This document shows positions 56,214 to 56,967 of a stretch of 64,000 nucleotides of DNA, one piece after another. The notes beneath the pieces are model-generated. The model did no database searches. It saw only the letters and a program-made list of their open reading frames with translations, and was not told the origin of the DNA. The position numbers and the translations under genes were made by a program. The DNA comes from Octopus vulgaris. Its lineage: Eukaryota. Within the stretch, counting starts at the first letter, position 1. Each line of letters opens with the position of its first letter. The stretch lies in NCBI GenBank assembly GCA_951406725.2, contig OX597817.1, positions 166,222,001 to 166,286,000 on the forward strand, written 5' to 3'.

Positions 56214-56217
<4 letters not shown>

Positions 56218-56967
56218 CAATAATAAATCTCTGAGCGAGGTATAAACAGTAACTGCTCTATAATATAAGCGGGATCAGCCATCTGAATGTGGCTAGGGAC
56301 AGGGCGGGGTGGTGGGGGTGTTACTGATGCATTTAGCCCCAGGCGACTATAGACGTCACCAGGAGAGCCGACACCATCACGGTGTCCTTGCTAGCCTGCA
56401 AAGGGAGATCAGCCTCACCGAAGATACGGATGCTACACACGGACCGGTTTCGAGGTATTTGCCTCTTGTCAGCGCATGGCAAGCACCGTTCTTCGCTGAG
56501 GGACTTCCTGTACAGGCCAGATATATATAGATTTTCACAGTAACCACAGTCACTGGCGTAGAAAATCCGTTCGATAACAATAATAAATCTCTGAGCGAGG
56601 TATAAACAGTAACTGCTCTGTAATATAAGCGGGATCAGCCATCTGAATGTGGCTAGGGACAGGGCGGGGTGGTGGGGGTGTTACTGATGCATTTAGCCCC
56701 AGGCGACTATCGACGTCACCAGGCTAAATGCATCAGAAGAACGGTGCTTGCCATGCGCTGACAAGAGGCAAATACCTCGAGACCGGTCCGTGTGTAGCAT
56801 CCGTATCTTCGGTGAGGCTGATCTCCCTTTGCAGGCTGGCAAGGACACCGAGATGGTGTCGGCTCTTCTGGTGACGTCGATAGTCGCCTGGGGCTAAATG
56901 CATCAGTAACACCCCCACCACCCCGCCCTGTCCCTAGCCACATTCAGATGGCTGATCCCGCTTATAT
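56214..56967. mobile_element. 360-bp tandem unit (1.4 copies) plus inverted arm, hammerhead-bearing; retrozyme-like
   Basis: 56214-56363 is repeated at 56574-56723; 56737-56967 is the reverse complement of about 56263-56493; flanked by (TA)n. Confidence 0.85.
56436..56478 (-). ncRNA. Minimal type I hammerhead motif (G8>A variant); mirror copy at 56752-56794, plus strand
   Basis: Reverse complement catgcg-CTGACAA-gagg caaata cctc-GAAA-ccgg-TC-cgtgtg. Confidence 0.75.

Follow-up and report, generated by a model that had tools for sequence, protein, structure and literature searches.

A multi-copy 360-nt hammerhead repeat in Octopus vulgaris, likely a retrozyme, with the insertion layout of a Penelope-like element

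A locus at positions 56214-56967 of a 64-kb stretch of Octopus vulgaris DNA (64,000 nucleotides of contig OX597817.1, hereafter the window) is a copy of a 360-nt repeat that is non-coding, belongs to a multi-copy family and carries a type I hammerhead fold. We consider it likely that this repeat is a non-LTR retrozyme, i.e. a non-autonomous Penelope-like element (PLE), that a PLE enzyme acting in trans reverse-transcribed it into a (TA)n run, and that the copy is now probably catalytically dead. The locus is best called a defective retrozyme copy and not an autonomous PLE. The layout of the insertion, the closure of the 360-nt unit, the existence of many family copies and the pair-sparing variation were established directly, while the mechanism is one that we infer. 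Retrozymes are already known, molluscs included; new here are the PLE footprint borne by a unit of this type and the presence of three states of the hammerhead core. According to the relevant sections of two studies (10.64898/2026.07.22.740005; PMC7229834), the mobilisation of retrozymes by PLEs has so far been argued from co-occurrence and from the phylogeny of PLE terminal repeats (pLTRs). A retrozyme-type unit bearing the full PLE insertion footprint provides mechanistic evidence for it.

Results

Architecture of the insertion

The features of the locus are as follows:

56176..56216, no strand: left (TA)n run, the likely insertion target; its final letters are common with the element 3′ end
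56214..56573, minus strand: full 360-nt unit; the hammerhead sense is minus
56214..56262, minus strand: 49-nt 'tail', present at one end only
56429..56487, minus strand: type I hammerhead of canonical type (descriptor and Rfam alignment)
56574..56723, minus strand: partial second unit, 5′-truncated, 150 nt, without hammerhead; a pLTR-like duplication
56722..56736, plus strand: templated filler at the inversion junction, 15 nt, copied in reverse-complement orientation from 56324-56338 and overlapping its neighbours by 1-2 nt on either side
56736..56967, plus strand: inverted 5′-truncated copy, 232 nt; its terminal TAT runs into the right (TA)n
56743..56801, plus strand: mirror hammerhead, with C3·A8 plus A14G (56781)
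about 56963..56982, no strand: right (TA)n run; its first 5 letters are common with the inverted arm

An earlier note on this DNA had described a 360-bp period of 1.4 near-identical copies, a 231-bp inverted arm and (TA)n flanks. The direct repeat indeed has a period of 360, with 148 identities over 150 positions between 56214-56363 and 56574-56723 (mismatches at 56260/56620 and 56351/56711), and the locus amounts to 1.42 units, each strand carrying a single hammerhead. The inverted arm was likewise recovered, its length being 232 nt and not 231 (56263-56494 versus 56736-56967; 227/232 identical, 5 mismatches), and both flanking (TA)n runs were verified. Read on the hammerhead strand, the order is right (TA)n, inverted 5′-truncated copy, 15-nt filler, 150-nt truncated unit, full unit with its 49-nt tail and, last, left (TA)n. 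On either side the insertion terminates in a 3′ end of the sense sequence that has a few A/T letters in common with the microsatellite. The GC content of the 360-nt unit is 50.3%, versus 36.4% across the window. No second family copy was found elsewhere in the 64 kb, and exact motif scans of metagenome, viral and prokaryote collections gave no match.

This layout is PLE-type, in line with the Penelope-type link proposed in the earlier note. As described in the relevant part of Craig et al. (2021), PLE insertions comprise a partial tandem, an adjacent inverted 5′-truncated copy and a one-sided tail of 30-40 bp, with a bias toward microsatellites or (TA)n. The locus resembles the GIY-YIG PLEs (Penelope/Poseidon, Neptune, Nematis and Naiad) in its partial tandem, inverted 5′-truncated copy, one-sided tail and microsatellite target, but differs from them in having no ORF, a tail of 49 nt instead of 30-40, and a canonical instead of a minimal hammerhead. 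Naiads favour (TA)n, occur in cephalopods and are without hammerheads, according to the same part of Craig et al. (2021).

Coding content

All six frames of the 360-nt period contain 3-8 stops, and the longest Met-started frame in the 510-nt tandem measures 67 aa, in agreement with the earlier reading that the unit holds no credible ORF. The same stops led us to reject an endless ORF on a circle. A Pfam search of 118 window frames (≥75 aa, complexity-filtered) gave no match in the element frames and no Penelope ORF, and no ORF combining a reverse transcriptase (RT) with GIY-YIG was found between the repeats in this search. The earlier note would have taken copies that always continue into a coding Penelope body for a pLTR; no such body was found among these 118 frames. 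The 115-codon open frame had no relative among longer proteins, which is weak evidence. Neither the window nor the loose ends listed (see below) yielded an autonomous partner. Internal pol III boxes were also considered and rejected, there being no A or B box inside the element.

Structure and predicted activity of the hammerheads

In the minus-strand hammerhead, C3 lies at 56472, position 8 at 56467 (A) and C17 at 56442. Stem II is formed by 56465-62 and 56455-52 with the loop CAAAUA, followed by GAAA at 56451-48, and loop III is CCGG. A 6-bp helix I with an extension is thus combined with a 4-bp helix II and a helix III of 1 bp plus the palindromic CCGG, and the predicted cut site lies between 56442 and 56441. 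The core reads CUGACAA and carries a C3·A8 mismatch. In the mirror hammerhead C3 lies at 56758 and A14G at 56781; the earlier note had recorded GAGAC there in place of GAAAC.

A relaxed type I descriptor permitting C3·A8 gave two matches in the 64 kb, one on each strand, and these were the two element copies; on dinucleotide shuffles of the 360-nt unit the same descriptor gave 0 matches in 2000. A type I hammerhead in each orientation, as claimed earlier, was thereby confirmed. The Rfam Hammerhead_1 model aligned over its full length (1-45/45) with 14 bits, versus a gathering threshold of 34, and an E value of 0.85 on 121 nt; loop II equals the Rfam Hammerhead_1 consensus loop. An Rfam scan of 5 kb did not list Hammerhead_1, and the miRNA matches in that scan were dismissed as simple-repeat or hairpin matches below gathering.

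The structure is of the canonical type, contrary to the minimal PLE-type hammerhead that the earlier note had also brought into play. Minimal PLE hammerheads are characterised by an extra nucleotide after position 9 and a long helix II (PMC4209133), whereas at the locus A9 is directly followed by G10.1 and helix II has 4 bp.

Positions C3 and G8 form a pair of the hammerhead core. Neither hammerhead at the locus has an intact catalytic core, since C3·A8 is found in each and A14G also in the mirror copy. In the predicted circle of the locus copy, helix I has a pair probability of 0.01 owing to mispairing between the core and loop III. A saturation study of the hammerhead core reported rescue by the C3G/G8C swap only. 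C3·A8 would therefore be expected to be weak or dead, and even a U3-A8 core may be weak. U3-A8 hammerheads are nonetheless natural and active in vitro, as stated in parts of Perreault 2011 (PMC3088659) and of PMC4209133. Both hammerheads at the locus are probably inactive, as the earlier note had suspected, and with one hammerhead per strand the insertion is therefore probably dead. Where helix III consists of a single base pair closed by a palindromic loop, efficient cleavage is described for the dimer only in the sections of PMC7229834 that treat it.

A multi-copy family in public sequencing runs

The unit or a part of it was present in 20 of the 24 listed runs (12 of them containing at least half of its words), which stem from nine studies and carry five organism labels. 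Contigs from four of these 20 runs were aligned to the permuted unit 56364-56755; one of the runs may be the source of the window. No run was recorded as RNA, and run X5, for which RNA was only a guess, was given no weight for expression. The contigs fitting the unit numbered 1027, 672, 1278 and 98 in the four runs, most of them being 90-99% alike.

The tandem junction at 56573/4 was bridged by contigs that differ from the window, namely record 5 (depth 921, 6 differences), record 22 (depth 1064, with only 30 letters on one side) and records 6 and 28. Contigs differing from the window also bridged the low-depth middle of the unit (records 3, 4, 11, 18 and 21), and all four runs contained the join that leads from 56722 back to 56364. 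Since divergent contigs bridge the junction, the middle and the join, the 360-nt loop is a property of the family and no accident of the locus. The contig pieces listed cover at most 135 nt of the stretch, so that loop closure rests on pieces of this size, which do not span multimers. There are many genomic copies of the 360-nt unit, and a single-copy sequence is ruled against by the contigs of all four runs; the summed contig depth is not a copy number. The retrozyme-like unit of the earlier note was thus recovered as a multi-copy, non-coding and closed 360-nt unit with a canonical hammerhead.

Loose ends were found in all four runs at 56576-56579, the end of the tail, with an agreement of about 0.5; many other copies thus terminate at the same tail position. 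In many contigs the sequence before this point is unrelated, varied and A/T-rich, and in run X2 three contigs adjoin (TA)n near an end of the mirror type. The locus-specific junction 56728-56755 was uncovered by contigs in all four runs, a gap that we do not read as polymorphism.

Behind 56611-56618, further loose ends revealed an abundant sister family with the same tail and a different neighbouring sequence. It holds a small hairpin with a loop resembling CAAAUA and no GAAA after it, and an 845-nt contig of run X1 also matches 56521-56618. This tail-sharing family is a candidate for a partner or for a second non-autonomous family.

Folding and pair-sparing variation

The minus (hammerhead) strand of the unit folds with a z score of -4.46 as a linear and -4.2 as a circular molecule, the latter value being reached by 0 of 100 shuffles. 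On the plus strand the scores are -1.6 and -0.9, respectively, and strong self-pairing is thus confined to the hammerhead strand.

Family variation was compared with the predicted structure at 30 listed variants from 28 places between 56395 and 56573; 10 listed rows past 56573 were left out. Thirteen variants preserve pairing, 13 fall on unpaired positions and 4 disrupt a pair. When changes were counted singly, 6 broke a pair versus 15.0 expected (P about 0.0001), in a test based on the predicted structure of a single copy and on the assumption that related variants are independent. None of the 28 variant places coincides with the 16 positions of the core, the helix II base and loop III (P about 0.07 alone). 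On this predicted structure, the variation appears to spare base pairs, which points to structural constraint. An ADAR-editing footprint, in the form of A-U versus G·U differences, was dropped as an explanation of the variants, because its polarity is unfixed and changes of C>T and G>A away from the window state dominate, as in ordinary mutation.

States of the hammerhead core

The earlier note had anticipated CUGACGA as the consensus core. Instead, U3 accounted for 0.92, 0.69, 0.77 and 0.80 of the depth in the four runs, and G8 for 0.22, 0.19, 0.27 and 0; the majority core is thus U3-A8 (69-92% of depth), with C3-G8 in the minority. The phase between the two positions was deduced from depth sums in runs X2 and X5 only. 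In X2, the C3 depth of 345.1 equals two G8 contigs (165.8 + 107.5 = 273.3) plus a window-identical contig (71.9), and in X5 the C3 depth of 9.8 nearly equals that of a single window-identical contig (9.9). The sums for X1 and X3 do not close, because contigs end between positions 3 and 8. Positions 3 and 8 appear to covary, the family being mostly U3-A8 and partly C3-G8, with an additional C3·A8 sub-lineage.

One C3-G8 contig of X2 differs from the window at five places, four of which are assignable, and has at least three of four helix I and bulge states in common with it. A change of G8 to A at C7pG8 is therefore plausible in this lineage, in keeping with the CpG decay that had been suggested before. 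Furthermore, window-identical contigs reached a depth of 363 in X3 and 72 in X2, versus lowest listed depths of 15-27 and 6-8, respectively. This suggests that the mismatched C3·A8 core was itself amplified, to very roughly ten or more copies as judged from single-contig depths.

Conceivably, though we think it rather doubtful, the family retains a compensatory walk from C3-G8 via C3·A8 to U3-A8, in which dead C3·A8 copies spread because active siblings cut them in trans, in heterodimeric hammerheads formed through the shared palindrome. For the satellite RNA of crickets, trans-cleavage within double hammerheads has been suggested (PMC2837043). If such a walk took place, the sub-lineage would be a parasite of a parasite, carrying a catalytic RNA across a fitness valley. 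The three core states within one family also offer a natural test set for covariation of positions 3 and 8 and for trans-cleavage. The same compensatory swap of positions 3 and 8 is known from natural U3-A8 hammerheads, as reported in parts of Perreault 2011 and, for a variant of the Schistosoma PLE Cercyon, of Cervera 2014. The hammerhead here differs from these in being of the canonical retrozyme type and in occurring beside C3-G8 and mismatched C3·A8 in one family.

Proposed mechanism of insertion

We propose that tandem donors would be transcribed into multimers of intact copies, with U3-A8 or C3-G8 cores, and that these multimers would self-cleave as dimeric hammerheads via the ACCGGU palindrome. 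The cleaved monomers may then close into circles. The (TA)n run would be cut by a PLE endonuclease-RT, with cDNA synthesis primed from each of the two target ends at fixed A/U-rich positions that lie 179 and 228 nt downstream of the ribozyme cleavage site. Of the two cDNAs, one would measure 510 nt (1.42 units) and the other 232 nt, and a short template switch would join them head to head, leaving the filler and the one-sided tail. Since both cDNAs would cross the cleavage site and neither would start there, the template would be a ligated circle or an uncleaved multimer, and not a simple cleaved linear monomer; an uncleaved linear multimer would explain it as well as a circle. Fixed priming sites distant from the cleavage site would in this way constrain the template.

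Alternative origins

Alternatively, the repeat could be the pLTR region of an autonomous PLE, in which case the locus would be a cluster of heavily 5′-truncated cDNAs joined by template jumps. The PLE-type layout is compatible with this, and the summed depth is roughly 10-30 times higher across the tail and 3′ part than across the hammerhead, a pattern predicted by 5′ truncation or by termini held in common. Loose ends at 56616 and 56637 furthermore indicated that sister families share the tail and 3′ part, and Xenopus retrozymes are homologous to pLTRs, as set out in part of 10.64898/2026.07.22.740005. However, deep divergent contigs bridge all parts of the 360-nt loop, the hammerhead lacks the extra nucleotide and the long helix II of minimal PLE hammerheads, and the 118 frames held no Pfam RT or GIY-YIG match near the element, to which the 115-codon frame without relatives adds a weak argument. 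We regard a pLTR origin as unlikely.

Still less probable, in our view, is a hammerhead-bearing SINE-like element that an ordinary RTE or CR1 LINE moved and whose inverted arm arose by twin priming. The window does contain LINE fragments, a TTA-like run ends the tail, loop II is identical to the Rfam consensus loop, and hammerhead SINEs are known in schistosomes (PMC6765202, in the section concerned). On the other hand, the element has no A or B box and is dissimilar to every LINE fragment in the window, and its partial tandem, one-sided tail and outward-facing 3′ ends are PLE traits unseen in non-LTR target-primed reverse transcription, according to the relevant part of Craig et al. A satellite or minisatellite fragment spread by DNA recombination, with the hammerhead as a passenger, could draw on the broken core of the locus copy and on the unequal crossover proposed for the tandem growth of retrozyme arrays (in part of 10.64898/2026.07.22.740005), but is very improbable given fixed termini in many unrelated flanks, a templated filler and pair-sparing variation, all of which speak for a structurally constrained RNA intermediate.

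Comparison with known retrozymes

The preferred reading, a retrozyme copy inserted by a PLE enzyme, agrees with what is described for metazoan non-LTR retrozymes in the sections of Cervera and de la Pena 2020 (PMC7229834) that deal with mussel and axolotl (HHR_Amex1) elements. Common to both are a non-coding unit of a few hundred nucleotides, a canonical type I hammerhead, a helix III of 1 bp plus a palindromic tetraloop, a self-paired sense strand and many copies. The 350-390 bp given there for mussel retrozymes fit the unit, and its 360 nt lie within the 150-450 bp range of the retrozyme criterion for non-coding monomers. In contrast to those retrozymes, the family here is mostly U3-A8, the locus holds 1.42 units, and the unit is retrozyme-like as judged by its sequence. 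Further differences are the inverted arm and the (TA)n target of the locus, the words 'inverted' and 'microsatellite' being absent from the main text of PMC7229834. The GC content of animal retrozymes stated in the passages concerned is <50% (text) or <45% (legend), so that the 50.3% of the unit is at or above the limit.

The PLE-derived retrozymes of Xenopus, as presented in part of the preprint by Li et al. 2026 (10.64898/2026.07.22.740005), are similar in being non-autonomous, pLTR-like units that occur as monomers or short tandems; no partner PLE for the octopus unit was found in the window or among the loose ends listed. Li et al. 2026 use two consecutive units with complete hammerheads as a criterion, and at the octopus locus the second copy has no hammerhead. 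Eight of the nine elements tested in that study did not cleave, and molluscs were outside its sampling.

PLEs are available in O. vulgaris, for which 190 families and 30 recently active Penelope families have been reported, and ribozymes go unmentioned in the part of that report considered here (PMC13282606). In the giant squid, 235 hammerhead loci were already listed (PMC6962438, in the section concerned). Our search of the literature outside subscription journals and outside the supplement of PMC7229834, which shows further invertebrate retrozymes, gave no description of this family or of any other octopus or cephalopod retrozyme family.

Neighbouring features in the window

Several other elements surround the locus. 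A Tc1-like transposon at 53432-54984 has 226-nt inverted termini (93%) and a broken transposase (HTH_Tnp_Tc3_2, E 6e-16; a weak DDE_3 match). From about 55270 to 56178, a Mariner-like remnant (Transposase_1, E 0.002, below the cut-off) reaches the left (TA)n, which may be the expanded TA target site of this remnant. Adjoining the right (TA)n, a perfect 22-bp hairpin with a 6-nt loop at 56982-57031 carries the B-box-like GTTCGATTC in both arms; it has no other copy in the window and has a 9-mer in common with the tandem junction of the element, possibly by chance. At 57297-57398 lies a 100-nt imperfect, MITE-like palindrome, 26 nt of which recur at 58949-58974, at a distance of 1.6 kb.

Broken LINEs were located at 7445-9187 (endonuclease and RVT_1 matches) and at 14760-15566 (an RT-like fragment). 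The sequence at 27902-28444 gave no Pfam match and resembles a CR1-type 3′ end. Three dispersed short repeat families, represented at 5300-5540, 4192-4456 and 1363-1560, occur in the window in numbers ranging from several to more than ten per family, with identities of 70-96%, and some of these copies are 184-nt partial tandems (e.g. 18080-18694 and 20131-20555).
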